A stretch of 64,000 nucleotides of DNA from Candidatus Saccharimonadales bacterium (GCA_035758565.1 DASTXL010000001.1:75242-139241); one strand, 5' to 3'. Positions 5,441 through 50,352 are shown, counted from the stretch's first letter. Numbers and translations are program-made. The notes: generated by a model not told the origin, from the sequence alone.

Positions 5441-5525
5441 GAAAAGAGCAGCCCGAGCAAAAATCACACTTTTTGCCCGGCGCGATGAGGAAAACCGTAG
5501 GTTGTCCTCATAGGGCGAAGCCGTG
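5441..5525 (+). repeat. Two-hairpin dispersed repeat, copy A
   Basis: About 85% identical by eye to the reverse complement of 16858-16945. Hairpins are CCGAGCAAAAA/TTTTTGCCCGG and ATGAGGA/TCCTCAT. Confidence 0.65.
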
Positions 5526-10161: not shown

Positions 10162-11003
10162 TGTTCCCTCATCTTCTAAGTTTGGCAGCGGCTGACGGTC
10201 CGGCTATTAATTTAACCCAGCAAACAGTATTCCATATCGGCTCCTGGGCTATTTCTAACGTTGAGCTGTATGGCTGGGCGTCAATTATTTTTGTAATTAT
10301 TTTCTTAACTGTTATGGCGCGCAAAGTCACCGTTCATCCCAGGGGCGGCATCATTCAGATAGTTGAAATAGTGGCGGAGTTTATTCGTGGCACAGTAGAT
10401 AATGCTTTTGAAGACAAGTCTAAGGCCAGGAAGTATTTACCATATTTTGTTACGTTATTTTTCTTTATTTTGAGTGTTAACTGGCTAGGATTACTGCCGA
10501 TCACCCGCGACGCCTTCCAGAGCCACGGCGCGCCGCTGCTCAAACCATGGACGGGCAGCTTTAACTCAACTTTGGCTATGGCCGCGGTCACTATGCTATT
10601 CGTTTACACCATGACGCTGCGCGATTTGGGCTTTAAGCGTTTTATTGGGCACTTCTTCGTCGGTAATCCAAAGAATCCGTTGTTTCTATTCATCGGTTTT
10701 ATCGAAATGATTAGCGATGCTATACGTGTTATCAGCCTTAGCCTCCGACTTTTTCTCAATGTGGCCATTGGCGAGATTATGATTGCTGTTTTTACCTATC
10801 TGGGCGGCGTGTTGGGACCGGTGACGGCACTGCCTTTCTTTTTGATGGAAATGTTCGTACTGGCTCTGCAAGCTTATATTTTTGTCATCCTGTCGATTAT
10901 GTACTTGGCGGTGGCCGTTAACCACGGCGCTGAAGCTCCTGCCGAAGACTTGACCGAAGAAACTGTTCCTGGAACAATAAAGGCGAGCCCAGAGAAAGCA
11001 TGA
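10161..11003 (+). CDS. atpB: F0F1 ATP synthase subunit a
   Basis: Polytopic. ISLSLRLFLNVAIGEIM carries the conserved Arg helix. Operon context. Confidence 0.92.
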   Translation: MFPHLLSLAAADGPAINLTQQTVFHIGSWAISNVELYGWASIIFVIIFLTVMARKVTVHPRGGIIQIVEIVAEFIRGTVDNAFEDKSKARKYLPYFVTLFFFILSVNWLGLLPITRDAFQSHGAPLLKPWTGSFNSTLAMAAVTMLFVYTMTLRDLGFKRFIGHFFVGNPKNPLFLFIGFIEMISDAIRVISLSLRLFLNVAIGEIMIAVFTYLGGVLGPVTALPFFLMEMFVLALQAYIFVILSIMYLAVAVNHGAEAPAEDLTEETVPGTIKASPEKA

Positions 11004-11064
11004 GGTGGGGTAAGACGGCTCTTTTTTAATGTTTATGAATTTTAATAATTAATAACAAGGAGTA

Positions 11065-11304
11065 ATGACAGACATGATCTCATTTGCAGACGCGATCAAC
11101 ACCGCCATCATTGGCAAGGGCCTGATGATTGGCGGCGGATTTATCGGGCCGGCTATCGGCATAGGTATTATTGGCGGTAATTACATGCAAGCGGTTGGCC
11201 GTAATCCAGAGGCTTCTAAGTTTTTGGGTCAGGCGCTAATCTTTACGGCGCTGGCTGAGCTTTTCGGGTTGATTGCTTTTGCCTCAATCTTCATCGTCAA
11301 ATAA
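11065..11304 (+). CDS. atpE: F0F1 ATP synthase subunit c
   Basis: 79-aa hairpin proteolipid with GRNPEA loop and ALAELFGLIAF (carboxylate E). Confidence 0.92.
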   Translation: MTDMISFADAINTAIIGKGLMIGGGFIGPAIGIGIIGGNYMQAVGRNPEASKFLGQALIFTALAELFGLIAFASIFIVK

Positions 11305-11446
11305 GAGAGATTTCCGAGAAAATGCACATTTTGCCCGAAAATTTGCGCTTCAATGCTCACGTACCAATAAGTACGCTGCGCTTCGATGCTCAATTTTCGA
11401 ACAAACTGCACTATTTTTCAAAAATCTCTAAGTTAATAAGGAATAA

Positions 11447-11974
11447 ATGATTAGTTTAATCATAGAATTTGCGGCCGACTCGGCTAATTCAGGTATTCTA
11501 GGACTCGATGTCCACGAGTTTGTAGTGCAGCTAATTACGTTCATTCTGGCGATTTTAGCTCTGATGAAATTCGCTGTGAGCCCGATTAACAAGATGCTGG
11601 ACGCTCGCCGTGAAACTATTGAAAAGGGCGTATCTCTGGGCGAAAAAATGCAAAAAGACCAGGCAGAGATGGAGGCTAAAGTAGCCGCAGCCTTGCGCGA
11701 TGCTCGCGAACAGGCCGATAAAATTATTGCCGACGCAGCCGAGCACGGCCGCCAGGCGATCGTTGAGGCCGAGGCTAAAGCCAAAGAAAAGGCTGAGGCC
11801 ATAATCGCCAGTGGTCAGGAGCGCGTTGAGCAGGATATTAAAGAGGCTCGCACTAAACTAGAAAAAGAATTGTCTGGTTTAGTCGCTGAAGCTACCGAGG
11901 CGGTTATAGGCGAGAAGGTAGATGCCAAAAAAGACGCCGCTCTAATTGATAAGGCTTTGCGGGGGCGGGCATGA
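11447..11974 (+). CDS. atpF: F0F1 ATP synthase subunit b
   Basis: N-terminal TM plus a long charged coiled coil. Operon order. Confidence 0.88.
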   Translation: MISLIIEFAADSANSGILGLDVHEFVVQLITFILAILALMKFAVSPINKMLDARRETIEKGVSLGEKMQKDQAEMEAKVAAALRDAREQADKIIADAAEHGRQAIVEAEAKAKEKAEAIIASGQERVEQDIKEARTKLEKELSGLVAEATEAVIGEKVDAKKDAALIDKALRGRA

Positions 11975-16857: not shown

Positions 16858-16945
16858 CGCTTACGCTTTGCCTTATGAGGAACCCCTTCGCGGTTCCTCA
16901 TCGCACCGGGCAAAAAGTGCGATTTTTGCTCGGGCTCTCTTCCGG
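16858..16945 (-). repeat. Two-hairpin dispersed repeat, copy B (inverted relative to copy A)
   Basis: Its reverse complement aligns with 5441-5525. Hairpins ATGAGGAACC/GGTTCCTCAT (16875-16901) and CCGGGCAAAAA/TTTTTGCTCGG. Confidence 0.65.
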
Positions 16946-33753: not shown

Positions 33754-34218
33754 ATGAAGAAGACGGCCGTTATCATCATAACCATCGCTCTACTGGGGTT
33801 AATTGGCATTTACGAAAAGACTCATGCCAGCACACACGAACTAGTCTCGCCGTCGCAAACAGAGGCAGCAACCATGATGAATAAATCAAGAATATCTTCT
33901 ATTAGCTCCAATACAACTTCAACCGTCAGCTACAAGGACGGTACATATACTGGCGATAGCGAATCTACTCCTTACGGCCAGGTACAAATTGCCGTGGTGA
34001 TTAACGGTGGCAAAATAACCAACGTTAATTTTTTGCAAATGCCCAACGATCAACGCGAATCTGAGCAACGAACTATCTATAGTGAACCGCTACTTAAACA
34101 AACAGCTATTGATAAACAGAGTGCCAACATTGATTTTGTAAGCGGTGCTACAAGTACTAGCGAAGGTTACCAGCAATCCCTCCAGTCGGCTCTCGATCAA
34201 GCCGCTAGATCGACGTAG
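33754..34218 (+). CDS. Membrane-anchored FMN-binding domain protein (ApbE flavinylation substrate type)
   Basis: N-terminal TM. C-terminal IDFVSGATSTSEGY matches the D-x-x-SGAT-S/T flavinylation motif of FMN_bind domains. TAAACT lies 7 nt before the ATG. Confidence 0.8.
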   Translation: MKKTAVIIITIALLGLIGIYEKTHASTHELVSPSQTEAATMMNKSRISSISSNTTSTVSYKDGTYTGDSESTPYGQVQIAVVINGGKITNVNFLQMPNDQRESEQRTIYSEPLLKQTAIDKQSANIDFVSGATSTSEGYQQSLQSALDQAARST

Positions 34219-34405
34219 CGCCTGCACCTGCCAGCCGGCGGAGCCGGCTGCACCGCTCATGCTTCTGCCGACTCTGCTACGTTATTGTCTCCGATACTCC
34301 CTCACCGTATTTCAATACGGTTCGGTCTGTTTCTCGACAAAGCCTTGCATAGCCGGCAGCTACGCCAATCTAATAAATCTGAGACAAGAAAGGTAAAATA
34401 AATTT

Positions 34406-35131
34406 ATGCGACGGGTAGAGCAGATTATGGGCATGCCAATAAGCATTGATATTCCCCAGTGCCAGAACGAGGTTGTTTTTGAGGAAGTATTTGACAGGTT
34501 AAAAGAAATAGACCGAAAGTTCAGCCCATATAGACCCGATAGTCAATTGAATCTCCATAATAAAGGTCGACTCAAGCCAGATAAGGAACTCAAGAGCATT
34601 ATTAAAGCTTGCAAAGAGGCCGAAGAGCTAACTGACGGATTTTTTTCGGCTTGGGCCAGCGGTGTTTTTGATCCAAGTGGATACGTAAAAGGCTGGGCAA
34701 TTGACCAAGCCGGCAAGCTCATCAAAAAAGCCGGCTACCAAACTTTTTGCGTAGCTGCCGGCGGCGACATTCTTGCTCGGTCGCAAACCAATAAGGACTG
34801 GGTAATCGGTATTCAAAATCCGTTCGATAAATCCAAGATTATTGGCAGCATCAAAGGAAAAAATTTTGCCGTGGCTACCAGTGGTAATTATGAACGCGGC
34901 GAGCATATTATTAATCTCAAAACCAAAAAGCCGGCGCTGGAATTGGCTAGCTTTACCGTGACAGGCAAGAATATTATCGAAGCCGACGTGTTGGCAACGG
35001 CCGGATTCGTGGCCGGTGATTTCGGTATTAATTTTGTGGGCAACCAGCACGGCTATGAAGCTCTGGCTATAAATTTAGACGGCCGAGTTTCGGCCACCGG
35101 CGGGATGAAGAAAATTTTCAGACCGGTTTAG
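34406..35131 (+). CDS. apbE: FAD:protein FMN transferase (ApbE family), short form without signal peptide
   Basis: IMGMPISIDI, FSPYRPDSQLNLHN, GYVKGWAIDQAG, AAGGDILA, ATSGNYERGEHIIN, ADVLATAGFV. Confidence 0.85.
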   Translation: MRRVEQIMGMPISIDIPQCQNEVVFEEVFDRLKEIDRKFSPYRPDSQLNLHNKGRLKPDKELKSIIKACKEAEELTDGFFSAWASGVFDPSGYVKGWAIDQAGKLIKKAGYQTFCVAAGGDILARSQTNKDWVIGIQNPFDKSKIIGSIKGKNFAVATSGNYERGEHIINLKTKKPALELASFTVTGKNIIEADVLATAGFVAGDFGINFVGNQHGYEALAINLDGRVSATGGMKKIFRPV

Positions 35132-45844: not shown

Positions 45845-46155
45845 ACATTGATGAGTTAACTAAGCAGGCGCTTGTGATTAAAGATAAGTATGCGCTCAAG
45901 AATGCCACGAGCGGCCATAAAGAATGGTCGGCAAAAGAATTTATGCTGGGTTTTGTCGGCGATGTTGGTGACCTGGCAAAGTTGATTATGGCCAAAGAAA
46001 ATCTGCGACATATCGACAACGTCGACGCGAAGCTCTCTCATGAGTTGGCTGATAATTTGTGGTCAATCTTGGTCCTCGCCGAACACTATGGGGTGAATTT
46101 AGAAGTTGAATTTGCAAAGACTATGGGCGAACTAGAGAAAAGGATTTCAGCATGA
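45841..46155 (+). CDS. MazG-like nucleotide pyrophosphohydrolase domain protein
   Basis: EFMLGFVGDVGDLAKLI...LSHELADNLWSILVLAEHYGVNLE shows a MazG/all-alpha NTP-PPase EExxE/D-like pattern. ATGA overlaps with both pheS and pheT. Confidence 0.65.
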   Translation: MNIDELTKQALVIKDKYALKNATSGHKEWSAKEFMLGFVGDVGDLAKLIMAKENLRHIDNVDAKLSHELADNLWSILVLAEHYGVNLEVEFAKTMGELEKRISA

Positions 46156-48803
46156 AAGTTAGCCTAAACTGGATTCGGCAACTGAACAAAAACTACGGCA
46201 CGAGCGATAGCTCGGAGCTTAAAGACGTTGATAAATTGGTAGAGAAAATTGGCGAGCAGCTCGGCGCTGTTGAAGAAGTTATAGACTTAGGCGAACGCTA
46301 CAAAGGTGTCGTAGTCGTGAAGGTTATTGAATGCGTCAAACACCCTGATGCTGATAAATTGAGCGTTTGTTTGGTAGATGACGGCGGAGTTGTTGAAGGA
46401 GTTGAGAGGGCTGACTGGCCACAAGACACGAGAGCGAGTGCAGTTTCGGCACGCGAGCGAGCAGCGGAAGAAGCTGTAGGTAAGGCTACTGTGACTGAGC
46501 AGCGGAGCTCGCCAACCGAAAATGTGCCGCAGCCCGGCGGAGTTACTGGCTCTGCCAGTAAGCAGGGCGGGCGGTCTCGTGGGCTTGTGCGAGTGGTTTG
46601 CGGCGCGCCAAATGTTAAAGCCGGCGTCACGGTAGCTTGGATACCACCAGGTGCCACGGTACCAAGTACTTTCGATAAAGATCCGTTCGTGCTCGAAGCC
46701 CGTCCGCTGCGCGGAATTGTTAGCAACGGAATGCTAGCTAGTGCTAAAGAGCTTGGCATCGGCGATAGTCACGAAGGCTTATTGTTGCTCGAAGATAAAA
46801 AGCCGGGCACCTCTTTCGCCGAAGCTTACGCACTCGACGACTTTGTTATTGATATCGAAAACAAGATGTTCACGCATCGTCCGGATTGTTTTGGCATTTT
46901 GGGTGTGGCCCGCGAACTGGCCGGAATCAGTGGCAAGCCTTTCAAGAGCCCAGATTGGTACAAAGAAAACGCTCGTCCAGAAGAAGGTTTTGGCTTAGAG
47001 CTAAAGGTTGAAAACAAAGTGCCGGAACTCGTGCCACGATTTACCGCTATCGCTCTTAAAGACGTCAAGGTTGGGCCCAGTCCGGTTTGGATGCAAAGCT
47101 GCTTATCGCGCGTCGGTATTCGCCCCATAAACAACGTTGTCGACCTCACGAACTACTACATGTATCTGACCGGCCAGCCGCTGCACGCCTATGATTACGA
47201 TAAGGTTAAAACTGGTATCCTCGGCGTGCGCTTGAGTAAAAAAAGCGAGAAAGTCGCGCTGCTTAATGGAAAGACGCTAGAACTAAATGACGGCGCAGTT
47301 GTTATAACTGATGGCCAAAAACCAATTGGTATCGGCGGTGTAATGGGCGGTGCCGAAACCGAGGTTGATGCGAATACCAAAAATATTATTCTAGAATGCG
47401 CTACTTTTGACATGAATCTTACTCGTAAAACAGCTATGGCCTACGGTTTGTTTACCGACGCCGTCACCCGCTTTACTAAAGGTCAAAGCCCATTGCAAAA
47501 TCTGGCTGTCTTAACCAAGACAGTTGACGACTTAGAACGCTTTAGCGGTGCGGCAGTAGCCAGCGCCTTGATTGACGAGAAGTCGCCGAAAGTAAAAGAG
47601 CCGAAGCCTTTAACCACGTCCGTTAAGCTTATAAATAGTCGGCTGGGTGAAGAGTTATCCGGCGCGAAGATTAAGGAGCTTTTGGAAAACGTTGAATTCA
47701 AGGTCGACGTAGCCGGCGATGAAGTCGGCATCGACGTGCCGTTCTGGCGCACCGATATTGAAATACCCGAAGACATTGTCGAAGAAGTTGGCCGGCTTTA
47801 TGGCTACGACAAGTTGCCGCAAATTTTGCCAAAGCGCAACCTAGAACCGGCTCAAATCGACCATCGCTTGGCATTCAAATCACATCTACGCAAGATTATG
47901 GTGGCTGCCGGCGCTAATGAAGTTTTAACTTATAGCTTTGTTAACCAAAAACTTTTAGAGGCGGCCGATCAAGACCCAGCTAGCGCCTTTCATATCCGTA
48001 ACGCTGTTAGTCCGGAGTTGCAGTATTATCGCTTCGATTTACTGCCGAGCCTGCTTGATAAAGTTCGTCCCAATAAAAAAGCCGGCTACGATTTGTTTGC
48101 GCTTTTTGAGCTTGGCAAAGGCCACGCCAAAGATTACGCCGACGAAAATAAGCTTCCAAAAGAATCAGAAATGATTGCCATGGTAGTGCACAACCCTTAT
48201 CTCAAAGGCGAGCCTATTTATCAGGCGCGCGCTATTGCCGATTATCTTTTGAACGAGTTGAACATTGATTCGCGTGAATATTACTCGCTGGGCGCCAAAG
48301 ACTTAGAAAACTCCAAGATTTTTAAATTCTTTGAACCGGGTCGTTCTGCGACGATTTGGTCCGGCGGCACTGGTCTTGGAATAATAGGCGAGCCGTCACA
48401 AAAACTGCGTCGAGTTCTAAAACTTCCAGCCGGCGTCTCGATGTTCGAGCTCAATATCGAAGCTCTTTACGAGACCCAAAAGCCAAAGAGCTATCATCCG
48501 CTAAACAAGTTCCCGGAATCGTCACAAGATATTTGTTTGAGACTGCCGGCAAAAATTAGCTACGAAGAGGCTGATGATTTTGTTTGGGAGAATCTGCAAA
48601 AATTATCTAAAAAACAAGGCTATCTTTGCCAGATGGACACGCTCGACATCTTCCAGAAAGAGGGTGATAAAACTCACAGGCAAATCACCTGGCACATTAG
48701 TTTGAGCCATCCCGAAAAGACTCTTAAAACCGAGGAAGTTAACAATCTTTTGGACGAACTGTCATCCGCGGCTCACGACAAACTTGGCGCCGAGAGAATT
48801 TAG
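46152..48803 (+). CDS. pheT: Phenylalanine--tRNA ligase beta subunit (with an ~65-aa insertion in the N-terminal tRNA-binding OB domain)
   Basis: HPDADKLSVCLVDDGG ... VVCGAPNV, B3/4, B5, FDX-ACB-like C-terminus. Confidence 0.96.
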   Translation: MKVSLNWIRQLNKNYGTSDSSELKDVDKLVEKIGEQLGAVEEVIDLGERYKGVVVVKVIECVKHPDADKLSVCLVDDGGVVEGVERADWPQDTRASAVSARERAAEEAVGKATVTEQRSSPTENVPQPGGVTGSASKQGGRSRGLVRVVCGAPNVKAGVTVAWIPPGATVPSTFDKDPFVLEARPLRGIVSNGMLASAKELGIGDSHEGLLLLEDKKPGTSFAEAYALDDFVIDIENKMFTHRPDCFGILGVARELAGISGKPFKSPDWYKENARPEEGFGLELKVENKVPELVPRFTAIALKDVKVGPSPVWMQSCLSRVGIRPINNVVDLTNYYMYLTGQPLHAYDYDKVKTGILGVRLSKKSEKVALLNGKTLELNDGAVVITDGQKPIGIGGVMGGAETEVDANTKNIILECATFDMNLTRKTAMAYGLFTDAVTRFTKGQSPLQNLAVLTKTVDDLERFSGAAVASALIDEKSPKVKEPKPLTTSVKLINSRLGEELSGAKIKELLENVEFKVDVAGDEVGIDVPFWRTDIEIPEDIVEEVGRLYGYDKLPQILPKRNLEPAQIDHRLAFKSHLRKIMVAAGANEVLTYSFVNQKLLEAADQDPASAFHIRNAVSPELQYYRFDLLPSLLDKVRPNKKAGYDLFALFELGKGHAKDYADENKLPKESEMIAMVVHNPYLKGEPIYQARAIADYLLNELNIDSREYYSLGAKDLENSKIFKFFEPGRSATIWSGGTGLGIIGEPSQKLRRVLKLPAGVSMFELNIEALYETQKPKSYHPLNKFPESSQDICLRLPAKISYEEADDFVWENLQKLSKKQGYLCQMDTLDIFQKEGDKTHRQITWHISLSHPEKTLKTEEVNNLLDELSSAAHDKLGAERI
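46389..46583 (+). repeat. In-frame insertion within pheT, collinear with intergenic element at 49718-49825
   Basis: About 65 codons sit where E. coli PheT, as I recall its sequence, has only about 4 residues. Shared blocks are ggcca..cgagagcgag, actgtgactgagc, tgccgcagc and ctggctctgccagt. The 10-nt direct repeat cggcggagtt occurs at 46382 and 46535. Confidence 0.45.
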
Positions 48804-48845
48804 CAGCTTTATCCAAGTGTGAATATTCTGTAGAATAAATTGAGC

Positions 48846-49466
48846 ATGAAGAGACCGCATATTAATAATTTTGGTGATAAATTACGCCGCGCAGGCTGGT
48901 TATTTTTAACGGCCTTGTTTATTTTTACTGGTTTAGGGGTTGGGGTTTACGCTTTTTACGCTAGCACTCACCAAACCGATACTAATCAAGCAGCCAACAG
49001 TACCACGCAGCCAAATAACACCACGGCTTGCTCGTTCAGCGGAGCCCAGAGCGCTGCGGTAATGTCTGCTCCGGCGGTGTATAAAACCTCAGGCAAAACC
49101 TCTAACTTACAGATCACTGATCTTCAAAAAGGCAGCGGCCAGACCGCCGCAAAGGGTGATTGTCTGCTGGTGAAATATTACGGCACAATTGCCAATACCG
49201 GTGTGAAATTCGACGAAGATTATACTCAGCCGCTCGCGTTGCAGTTCTTAGTAGGCGAGGGTTATGTGATTCCGGGCTGGGATCAGGGCTTGATTGGCAT
49301 GAAAGTTGGCGGCGAGCGTCGTTTGGTAATTCCATCAAACTTAGGCTACGGTGCCAGCGGCCAATGTAAAACCCAGGACCCAAATAACCCAGAAAAGTGT
49401 GCCGACTTTGCTATTCCTCCAAATACCGACCTGGTTTTTGTCGTCAAACTCCTTAGCATCAAATAG
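48846..49466 (+). CDS. Membrane-anchored FKBP-type peptidyl-prolyl isomerase
   Basis: N-terminal TM. VKYYGTIANTGVKFDEDY...FLVGEGYVIPGWDQGLIGMKVGGERRLVIPSNLGYG. An alternative TTG start is at 48840. Confidence 0.85.
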   Translation: MKRPHINNFGDKLRRAGWLFLTALFIFTGLGVGVYAFYASTHQTDTNQAANSTTQPNNTTACSFSGAQSAAVMSAPAVYKTSGKTSNLQITDLQKGSGQTAAKGDCLLVKYYGTIANTGVKFDEDYTQPLALQFLVGEGYVIPGWDQGLIGMKVGGERRLVIPSNLGYGASGQCKTQDPNNPEKCADFAIPPNTDLVFVVKLLSIK

Positions 49467-49879
49467 GTTACTCATACTTTTGTATCGACAAAAGCATGCA
49501 AAAACTCTTGGCACATTCGAAAACGCGATTCTCACTCAACCTTCACCAAAAGTGAAGCTGCGGAACTCTCCGCTGGCTGGCGGATCAAACAGTCCTCGCT
49601 TCTGCTTTTGATTCACTTTTTGCTCGATCGGTTTTCTCGAGTGCCGAAAATAATATTTCTCGCCCAGTAACTACACCGTTAATGCTAATCGTGCCACATT
49701 TGAGCGCAATGCAAGAAGGCCACGAGAAGCGAGCGAAAAGTACAAAGATGTACTTTGAGTGAGCCTCGCAGTGAGTTGCCGCAGCAGTGTGCCAAAAGGC
49801 CATCAGAGCGGCTGGCTTTGCCAGTCGGTTGGGTGGCCGTTGTGGTTCGATTGAGGTAAAAAGCACAATATATAGTGTA

Positions 49880-49909
49880 TTGACGCCTATTTTCCAGCGG
49901 GTCTACAAT
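49880..49909 (+). promoter_or_regulatory. Promoter candidate for the glutaredoxin-like gene
   Basis: TTGACG-18 nt-TACAAT. The SD-like sequence GAGAGGG lies before the ATG at 49967. Confidence 0.45.
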
Positions 49910-49966
49910 ACATAAGGAGTTTAGGAAAACACCAAACAAAAACTAATTTAGAGAGGGTTATCAAGG

Positions 49967-50215
49967 ATGCCTAAGAACATCACTGTATTTACAACTAGCA
50001 CTTGCAGCTACTGCCCAATGGTCAAACGCTATTTGGCAAGCAAGGGCCTAACCTACGACGAAGTAAACCTGGAAGACAATCCAGAGCGCCAGCAAGAAGT
50101 CTTGGCCATGAGCGGTGCGTTGACCGTACCAGTCACCATTGTTACTCAGCAAGACGACAGTCAGGCTGTGATAGTTGGTTATAACTTACAAAAGCTCGCC
50201 CCAGCGGTTGCGTAG
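49967..50215 (+). CDS. Glutaredoxin-like protein (NrdH/YruB type)
   Basis: 82 aa. CSYC redox motif near the N-terminus. TVPVTIV. Confidence 0.8.
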   Translation: MPKNITVFTTSTCSYCPMVKRYLASKGLTYDEVNLEDNPERQQEVLAMSGALTVPVTIVTQQDDSQAVIVGYNLQKLAPAVA

Positions 50216-50352
50216 CTTTTTTGTGGCGCTATGCTGCGTCAGAGTCTGCGCTTTTCGCGAGCAGTATTGAAATAAAGCTCGTTGCAATGCTTAACTCTTC
50301 CTTGCGTTGCACTCGCCTAAAGCTTAATTTGAATATAGTTAAGGAGTTCGAG

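Follow-up and report, generated by a model that had tools for sequence, protein, structure and literature searches.

What is a stretch of low-complexity sequence doing inside the gene for an essential tRNA synthetase? The question is raised by pheT, which encodes the beta subunit of phenylalanine-tRNA ligase, in a 64,000-nucleotide stretch of DNA from a Candidatus Saccharimonadales bacterium (GCA_035758565.1 DASTXL010000001.1:75242-139241), hereafter called the window. The original prediction, made by a model from the nucleotides alone, held that about 65 codons had been inserted in frame into the tRNA-binding domain of this gene and that the inserted DNA was a small structured repeat element, collinear with a noncoding region about 3 kb downstream. 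[quoted passage not shown]

The host gene occupies positions 46152-48803 on the plus strand, as defined by its open reading frame (ORF) and translation, and encodes 883 amino acids. The product matches a Candidatus Saccharimonadales PheT at 100% and contains the Pfam domains tRNA_bind, B3_4, B5, tRNA_synthFbeta, and FDX-ACB; the next-best relatives share no more than 68% identity and are 818-853 amino acids long. As first noticed, 65 residues (80-144) separate the conserved motifs ...VCLVDDGG and LVRVVCGAPNV. The corresponding gap in E. coli PheT (3PCO_B) is indeed short, at 2 residues instead of the ~4 first stated (query 40-79 aligns with chain residues 32-71, and query 145-231 with 74-156). 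In an alignment of PheT N-termini, the extra sequence is present in 0 of 119 Saccharimonadales relatives, whose normal loop comprises 11-14 residues (DDGGKVKDVER-KGDG-LV). The residues VVEGVER in the window protein match this loop and are host sequence, so that the real insertion amounts to ~53 codons; the in-frame insertion stands, but the length of ~65 codons does not. The revised figure agrees with the lengths of the window protein and its closest insert-free relatives (883 versus 830 amino acids). A protein-level insert shared by all relatives would point to a lineage-specific loop rather than a repeat; 119 of the 121 PheT sequences examined lack it.

At the nucleotide level, GCT GAC TGG CC in the window resembles GGG GAC GGC C in the relatives, which places the insertion at ~46419-46577 on the plus strand (159 nt, 53 codons, PQDTRAS...KQGGRSR), give or take a few bases. 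The uncertainty of the boundaries is ~6 nt, and an alternative reading of the loop starts the insertion at 46413. The insert is richer in G+C than its surroundings, as had been noted (0.62-0.65 in 100-nt windows versus 0.49 for the whole window). An AlphaFold2 model of PheT built with 42 homologues has a mean predicted local distance difference test (pLDDT) score of 85, and values below 50 are confined to residues 89-142; the strands on either side, 71-76 and 145-150, are confident and belong to the OB-fold tRNA_bind domain. The insert is predicted to be a flexible surface loop that leaves the fold intact, which answers the question about the OB fold that the original prediction had put to structure prediction.

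The pheT copy can be divided into two hairpins and a closing stem. Its 5' domain (46436-46530, plus strand, delimited by the R2 match described below) forms one long, imperfect hairpin whose apex stem reads GTAG...CTAC and has the direct repeat GAGCAGCGGA on its flanks; the inverted repeat pairs 46441-46458 with 46507-46524, and the direct repeat starts at 46459 and 46497. Hairpin 2 (46532-46572, plus strand, inverted repeat I1) has the apex CTGGC-TCT-GCCAG, encodes PGGVTGSASKQGG, and differs by compensatory changes from the copy at 49790-49844 as well as from other copies. The closing stem (inverted repeat I4) joins CACGAGAGCG at 46427-46436 to CGGTCTCGTG at 46572-46581, both on the plus strand, and is extended by a further 6 bp (CACAAG at 46420-46425 with CTTGTG at 46584-46589). 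One compensatory change in this stem, G:C to T:A, is seen in an orthologous copy from another genome (GCA_016177425.1, locus L115, treated below). The 5' hairpin is also supported by a minimum free energy fold of -82.3 kcal/mol (z = -2.7).

The 10-nt direct repeat CGGCGGAGTT reported on the plus strand at 46382-46391 and 46535-46544 is present at both places. It was considered as a target-site duplication and rejected. The first copy encodes D-GGV and belongs to the conserved host motif DDGGV(V/K), which is kept in insert-free relatives; the second lies within hairpin 2 of the element. The empty site implied by such a duplication would also delete VVEGVER, which aligns with the relatives.

Collinear blocks shared with the noncoding region 49718-49825 were the initial reason to suspect a repeat, and two of them hold up well: in the window, TACTKTGASTGAGC occurs only at 46487 and 49751, and a perfect CTGGC-NNN-GCCAG only at 46546 and 49812. 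In both the insert and the intergenic region, CTGGC-TYT-GCCAG is the center of an extended hairpin, and the two hairpins differ in a compensatory manner. Alignment of the insert with 49700-49860 (blastn, word size 7) gave 65 identities over 104 positions with E = 0.004 in the window, and its gapped score was matched by 1 of 1000 dinucleotide shuffles of the target. The 49718-49825 region ranks first of 1260 windows compared on both strands (score 26; runner-up 20), and an ungapped repeat finder did not detect the similarity between pheT and the intergenic region. Judged from this pair of sequences alone, the similarity is borderline, so the alignment check originally suggested does not settle the matter by itself. 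Homology of the two window copies is instead secured by a covariance model derived from copies that include other genomes, which scores them at 122.8 and 128.6 bits.

That model, R1, was built from five sequences, namely the two window copies and three loci from elsewhere (L043, L083, and L069) that share with the pheT insert the hairpin and the upstream blocks GAGCARCGGAG...GTAC...GTAC...GAGTAGCGGAG. For these five, RNAalifold predicts a fold of two hairpins in which 15 of 30 pairs show compensatory changes. The three outside loci come from a one-genome-per-species scan with CTGGCTYTGCCAGTNNGNNGGG that gave 109 stretches, among whose 80 listed are 6 from Saccharibacteria, L043, L083, and L069 included. 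R1 matches the pheT insert at 46436-46573. A second model, R2, represents the 5' domain alone, was run unfiltered, and matches at 46436-46530 with 64.6 bits. Outside its building set, R1 found copies at L003 126-265 (85 bits) and, in the window, at 34219-34357, at 11325-11413, and at 50189-50314, the last with orthologues downstream of the glutaredoxin gene in L001, L003, and L005; copies not used in R1 score 75-115 bits. With R2, five clear copies were found in the 64-kb window (34266-34357, 50223-50314, 46436-46530, 49702-49795, and 11321-11413), or ~1 copy per 13 kb. A scan for the 5'-domain pattern yielded at least 87 metagenome copies in 80 contigs that R1 confirmed at 30-115 bits, with up to 4 per contig.

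The element unit measures ~140-170 nt and comprises two hairpins, a long one on the 5' side and another on the 3' side, together with an inverted repeat that closes the whole. Its core is an imperfect hairpin of ~93 nt with the consensus GGATGCAGTGCAAGG..CGAG.A.CGGA..GAGCCGTAT....ATACGGTGAG.GAG.A.CGCAG....TAACGC.GCAATGCGCC, and the GTA/TAC apex stem is unvarying in 85 of 85 sequences. Most full copies have a second hairpin after the core, with the apex NGGC-TYT-GCCN. The full-length copies examined also possess a copy-specific closing inverted repeat just outside the core, typically 12-17 bp, which differs by subfamily. In the alignment of the 87 metagenome copies, pairing holds in 93% of cells, and double-sided changes occur at 24 of 29 pairs. 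The covariation score of 0.361 compares with 0.103 in shuffles (0 of 500 as high) and at most 0.056 in slid controls, and a 12-sequence set gives a similar picture. Pair 40-59 is G.U in 51 of 85 sequences, and this bias indicates that one strand is the folding strand.

Searches of existing collections did not recover the family. Rfam 15 gave no gathering-score match other than tRNAs in the window or in six related loci, and no relevant match up to E = 10 over 46300-46700 or 49400-50000. The element had no blastn match in plasmids and phages, and its pattern had none in 2.9 million viral contigs. Full-text literature searches returned nothing that describes an element of this kind from Saccharibacteria or Patescibacteria.

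Most copies found sit in intergenic spacers; those in the window fill the spacers FMN_bind-ApbE, atpE-atpF, FKBP-glutaredoxin, and glutaredoxin-next gene. Beyond pheT, in-frame sense copies were located in genes identified by Pfam as encoding CysRS (just before SPWGPGFPGWHVEC; L116), tRNA dihydrouridine synthase (Dus; L152), FolD (between its two domains; L146), and an S-adenosylmethionine-dependent methyltransferase (at two different sites; L157 and L137). Every confirmed intragenic copy runs in sense orientation, lacks stops, and has a length divisible by three. Intragenic copies with hairpin 2 read it in the PheT frame as G-S-A-(S/G)-(K/R)-Q. The pheT copies depart from the other intragenic copies in the frame of their 5' half. 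The idea of a structured repeat that resides both between genes and in frame within them is supported by the five window copies, the metagenome copies, the covarying two-hairpin fold, and the five kinds of host protein. The proposed analogy to Rickettsia palindromic elements (RPEs) likewise gains from in-frame, constant-orientation insertion in unrelated genes and from the conserved peptide. A related regularity failed to generalize. Among the first 12 copies translated, the 10 intergenic ones have stops in all three sense frames, as if copies were stop-free only when intragenic; this is contradicted by the metagenome set, in which 84 of 87 copies have some open frame across the element, and it is not used as evidence. 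A UmuC-like gene in L043 has a copy immediately before it that stays open in the same frame; an in-frame N-terminal extension of UmuC is no more than possible there, and the copy may be a simple 5' leader.

FolD offers the largest sample of an occupied coding site. The element is present at one site in 30 of 120 homologue clusters, which read ALG-(D/N)P(E/D)APWPPH...VRGSW-FEPATP, and 88 clusters read ALG-KNAK-FEPATP; the other 2 have in-frame internal deletions. In a close pair of long and short folD alleles, 177 nt replace 12 nt. All long alleles have the junction residues (D/N)P(E/D)A where the short ones have KNAK, and long and short forms are mixed at the tips of a neighbor-joining tree made from non-insert columns.

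Evidence of mobility comes chiefly from a young subfamily of at least 10 near-identical units, 165-167 nt long, in unrelated flanks. These units end in perfect 13-bp terminal inverted repeats (TAGGACTTACGCG/CGCGTAAGTCCTA). Their 5-bp flanks are identical in 3 of 10 cases (TGTTA, TAATA, and TTTAA) and agree at 4 of 5 positions in 3 more; the mean number of matches is 3.5 versus 1.8 for mismatched pairs (permutation P = 0.00015). Occupied and empty orthologous sites exist for pheT, the FKBP-glutaredoxin spacer, and folD. The family has the attributes by which MITEs are recognized: a short unit, terminal repeats, target duplication, and dispersed copies with presence/absence variation. In one locus (L142), a reverse-transcriptase gene (Pfam RVT_1, 10220-11218) ends 34 nt before an element copy (11252-11364) that shares its orientation. 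Since none of the other copies has a homologous reverse transcriptase nearby, the juxtaposition is probably a coincidence, and the reading as a diversity-generating retroelement or retron was rejected.

How the pheT copy has changed since insertion can be read from the second carrier. A word-indexed protein search with the insert peptide gave no match; an exhaustive HMMER search with the 58-amino-acid peptide found one other carrier, the PheT fragment of GCA_016177425.1 (L115), which has the same insert at the same site (87 bits with R1). The flanks of the two genes are 64-65% identical, with codon position 3 at 0.34-0.41, versus 78% identity in the inserts, where position 3, at 0.78, equals positions 1 and 2. 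Two long folD alleles behave similarly: position 3 identity is 0.89 in the insert, against 0.57-0.59 in the flanks. The pheT-copy fold has 63 pairs. Between the window and L115, 46 of them are unchanged, 5 survive a one-sided change, 7 show compensatory changes, and 5 no longer pair; with the 44 substitutions placed at random, 20.5 +/- 3 pairs would be lost, and 0 of 5000 trials reached the observed number. Because the fold is kept by compensatory changes and position 3 is conserved like positions 1 and 2, the element appears to be under selection as a folded nucleic acid. Comparison of the two sequences, in other words, shows the insert conserved in that form. The selected form is most likely RNA, given that all intragenic copies are sense and G.U pairs are frequent.

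Two further features of the L115 gene are separate from the insert. A second partial match at L115 2308-2396 (22.8 bits, hairpin 2 only) contributes ~9 in-frame residues (ISGSAGKQGGV) in the B5 region and is read in the frame of the main L115 insert, which suggests that the hairpin-2 module can occur alone. The gene is also split into two ORFs by a frameshift in a GGAGAAT tandem repeat (1392-1452), which adds ~14 residues; the frameshift is either an assembly error or a real slippage-prone tract.

Taken together, these observations make it highly probable that the pheT insert is one copy of a small, noncoding, MITE-like mobile family of Saccharimonadales that is translated and whose fold is under selection. 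The element would arrive as DNA through a transposase that makes 5-bp target duplications, as the young subfamily indicates and as would hold by extension for the old pheT copy. Survivors would be mostly intergenic, in either orientation. A copy in an essential gene would survive only in a surface loop, in sense orientation, stop-free, and with a length that is a multiple of three, and would then be translated. In PheT, the product would be a loop of ~53 residues, hydrophilic and probably disordered, set between two beta strands of the OB-fold domain at the N-terminus (tRNA_bind), with the enzyme core intact. Once inserted, the copy would decay neither as neutral nor as ordinary coding sequence, with compensatory changes keeping the single-strand fold. 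The insert-bearing allele would have arisen once and is now found in two non-sister lineages, a distribution that calls for later lateral exchange by recombination, repeated loss, or site-specific re-insertion.

Several observations weigh against this account. The conservation of orthologous copies and of the fold exceeds what a purely selfish element needs, and intergenic copies lie in both orientations relative to their neighbors, in the window and the metagenomes alike, which is awkward for a purely mRNA-level role. The window copies are old, and pheT shows no clean target duplication; the best candidate is TGGCC at 46416-46420 versus TGGGC at 46580-46584, with 4 of 5 positions matching. 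An unsystematic search, in which the window genes were partly screened, identified no transposase or autonomous partner with matching ends. The terminal inverted repeats vary between subfamilies, which is unusual if one transposase recognizes them. Covariation was counted on model-fitted alignments, which are biased toward structure, though the margin is large. Translation of the insert, finally, is suggested only by open frames and structure prediction.

The strongest competing account concerns the history of the pheT allele. It supposes that nothing transposed into pheT in this lineage and that the insert-bearing allele came from a different Saccharimonadales lineage, taken up as DNA and integrated by homologous recombination in the conserved flanks, a homing-like process that lacks a dedicated nuclease. 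The L115 PheT is only 0.61 identical to the window PheT, no closer than to any other relative, and insert-free proteins (P0002-P0004) are 0.78-0.79 identical to the window protein. Both inserts share the same closing stem and are more alike than their flanks, and the folD alleles, with their mixed tree tips and uniform long-form junction, fit the same idea. However, the immediate flanks of the window insert resemble close relatives and not L115, so any conversion tract must be very short, and homologous recombination works poorly on flanks of 65% nucleotide identity. The same pattern would be expected from repeated precise loss or from site-specific re-insertion, and insert-bearing pheT is known from two sequences only. 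We consider this history possible but somewhat doubtful. A broader proposal, which we put forward only tentatively and hold to be rather improbable, is that the element is a structured, coding-compatible module whose fold is under host-level purifying selection even in essential ORFs, and that insert alleles spread to identical pheT and folD sites between divergent lineages by site-specific insertion or by natural transformation and recombination, in a homing-like manner with no intein or intron. If true, this would be a mechanism not described before, by which a folded nucleic-acid element maintains itself and moves in the core genes of ultra-small bacteria.

The conserved fold also invites the view that the family is primarily a host-functional structured RNA module, such as a protein- or RNase-binding site, a processing site, or an mRNA stabilizer, for which mobility only creates copies; the pheT copy would then be a functional RNA element within a coding sequence. 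Strong covariation with strand-specific G.U pairs, the invariant apex stem, the sense orientation of all intragenic copies, the conservation of position 3 within both the pheT and folD inserts, and the excess of compensatory over broken pairs between the two pheT copies are all consistent with such a role. So are the copies downstream of the glutaredoxin gene, which are orthologous in the window (50189-50314), L001, L003, and L005 and have a mean column identity of 78% over these four genomes, although synonymous sites between the genomes are saturated. Yet there is no consistent gene association: copies occupy unrelated operon spacers in both orientations as well as unrelated proteins, and none matches an Rfam family. 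The terminal repeats, target duplications, and near-identical dispersed copies show transposition, and the higher identity of the inserts could equally mean that insert alleles are younger than their host genes. On this evidence, a primarily host-serving module is unlikely.

Removal of the element at the RNA or protein level, by an intron-like, intein-like, or paired-end excision that leaves PheT without the 53 residues, is very improbable. The closing stem does bring the ends together, and an excision of transposons from mRNA, triggered by pairing, is described for animals (PMC12779559), but excision before translation would not demand that intragenic copies be stop-free, sense, and a multiple of three. 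The partial internal deletions in FolD stay in frame, no intein or group I/II intron signature and no Rfam match was found, and 53 residues are too few for an intein. A one-off templated duplication between pheT and the element ~3.3 kb downstream, in either direction, has their proximity, common orientation, and collinearity in its favor and is still hardly credible: the pheT copy is ~63% identical to the 49702-49842 copy versus 78% to the pheT copy of another genome, and dozens of copies exist elsewhere. By these identities, the downstream copy is a diverged paralogue and not the donor. Lineage-specific expansion of a low-complexity loop, with the resemblance to 49718-49825 arising by chance or shared composition, would suit the internal repetitiveness of the insert and pairwise statistics that are borderline given composition and search space, but it is next to impossible to reconcile with 123 bits from the covariance model, 75-115 bits for independent copies, and the covariation.

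Among described systems, RPEs are one of the closest parallels to the MITE-like family favored here; they are palindromic repeats of ~150 bp that occur in frame in many unrelated genes and encode a conserved peptide (Ogata et al. 2000, as summarised in PMC10969869). The Saccharimonadales element shares with them the length of ~150 nt, the palindromic structure, residence both between genes and in frame, the constant orientation in unrelated housekeeping genes, the setting of a reduced genome, and a conserved hydrophilic peptide that the host protein apparently tolerates. It differs in host phylum (Saccharimonadales, Patescibacteria) and, by appearance, in sequence; the likeness is one of behavior, and membership in the RPE family is not claimed. 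Further differences are the terminal inverted repeats and 5-bp target duplication demonstrable in the young subfamily, a fold with compensatory evolution at orthologous intragenic sites, and insert alleles at the same site in non-sister lineages.

Bacterial MITEs include the Correia elements of Neisseria, ERIC, pneumococcal BOX/RUP, and cyanobacterial MITEs (PMC10969869). The common ground with these is a small noncoding unit with terminal inverted repeats, target duplication, dispersed copies, a folded transcript, and occasional in-frame ORF fusion. In the Saccharimonadales family, however, the ends vary by subfamily and the two-hairpin core is conserved, the opposite of most MITEs, and the core shows RNA-like covariation with frequent G.U pairs. 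Repetitive extragenic palindromic sequences (REPs), which are associated with RAYT transposases, each consist of one imperfect palindrome of 20-40 nt; their GTAG head is conserved, and they lack a target duplication. Like the present family, REPs and bacterial interspersed mosaic elements (BIMEs) are intergenic palindromes that maintain their pairing, occur in both orientations, and are often situated right behind stop codons. Identity with REPs or BIMEs was rejected, as the unit here is compound, with two hairpins, 140-170 nt, and a 5-bp duplication. The element is best described as an RPE-like MITE that inserts in frame in coding genes. Two of its features exceed the textbook case: purifying selection on structure within ORFs and a patchy distribution over identical sites.

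To our knowledge, in-frame selfish DNA within genes that encode proteins has until now been essentially a Rickettsia phenomenon. The same behavior is now seen in Saccharimonadales, members of the Candidate Phyla Radiation with genomes of ~1 Mb. The genes affected include those for the core proteins PheT, FolD, CysRS, and Dus, and the family accounts for puzzling low-complexity inserts in conserved proteins of this group. The covariance model lets annotators recognize such inserts, which also provide natural insertion-tolerance data for essential enzymes. Why the fold is conserved inside a coding sequence, and how identical insert alleles come to lie in non-sister lineages, are testable questions that follow.

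The remaining window copies illustrate the intergenic side of the family. The paralogue of the pheT insert (49702-49842, plus strand; 128.6 bits with R1 and 63.2 bits with R2) lies between an FKBP-type gene (48840-49466) and a glutaredoxin gene (49967-50215) and has a closing stem at 49687-49698 / 49841-49852. The spacer between these genes is 500 nt in the window versus ~120 nt in four relatives, so the region that matches the pheT insert sits in a second lineage-specific insertion. The rest of this block (49467-49701, no strand assigned), delimited by self-complementarity and by its absence from the four relatives, contains a 137-nt imperfect palindrome (49509-49646). R2 matches weakly at 49542-49614 on the minus strand (12 bits), and the block may be a decayed inverted copy; neither the window nor 1.6 Mb of fetched loci contains a relative of its 5' 235 nt. 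The copy just downstream of the glutaredoxin gene (50189-50314, minus strand; 41.9 bits with R1 and 70.3 bits with R2) has its 5' domain at 50223-50314.

A full copy (34219-34357, minus strand; 74.7 bits with R1 and 79.4 bits with R2) fills the spacer between genes assigned by Pfam to FMN_bind (33754-34218) and ApbE (34406-35131), and its closing stem is TAGATTGGCGTAGC/GCTACGTCGATCTA. The match near 34200 was at first taken for chance, a view overturned by the covariance model, which reveals the full copy at E about 1e-18 even though it was absent from the R1 building set. A short copy limited to the 5' domain (11321-11413, minus strand; 18.8 bits with R1 over 11325-11413 and 25.4 bits with R2, E = 7e-6) lies between atpE (11065-11304) and atpF (11447-11974), as identified by Pfam.

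Around the two glutaredoxin-flanking copies, some details concern the genes themselves. The 82-amino-acid glutaredoxin gene is bracketed by two element copies in inverted orientation, and relatives have the downstream copy only. Upstream of it, GGTAAAAAGCACAATATATAGTGTATTGACG (49856-49890) is near-invariant in five genomes whose synonymous sites are saturated and is probably a promoter or operator. The FKBP-type isomerase has 14 extra residues (the SGQCKTQDPNNPEKCADF region) relative to its L001 orthologue, a feature unrelated to the element.

Other repeats were encountered along the way. A second, unrelated repeat of ~72 nt (AGCCCGAGCAAAAATCRCACTTTTTGCCCGGYGCGATGAGGAA...TTCCTCATARGGC) occurs in the window at 5450-5521 (plus strand) and 16865-16936 (minus strand), with copies 85% identical; it has its own hairpins and no Rfam match at the gathering score, and one copy lies just upstream of tRNA-Gln and the other in a spacer. 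In other Saccharibacteria metagenome-assembled genomes (MAGs), a different repeat, GCAGCAAGGCTGCGAGAGGGGGCTCAAATCTGGCTTTGCCAGTTTGAGGGGG, adjoins tRNA genes (L033 1626-1647, L077 3802-3823, and L081 2419-2440) and has only the hairpin apex in common with the pheT-insert family; L081 has several more GGATC-NGGCTTYGCCN-GTCC hairpins nearby. The 22-nt hairpin pattern also appears in several contigs of the same Thermoguttaceae MAGs and in many other Planctomycetota genomes (L024, L028, L060, L007, L032, and L073 among the loci), at a frequency above single-genome expectation, and these groups may harbor a separate repeat of their own.

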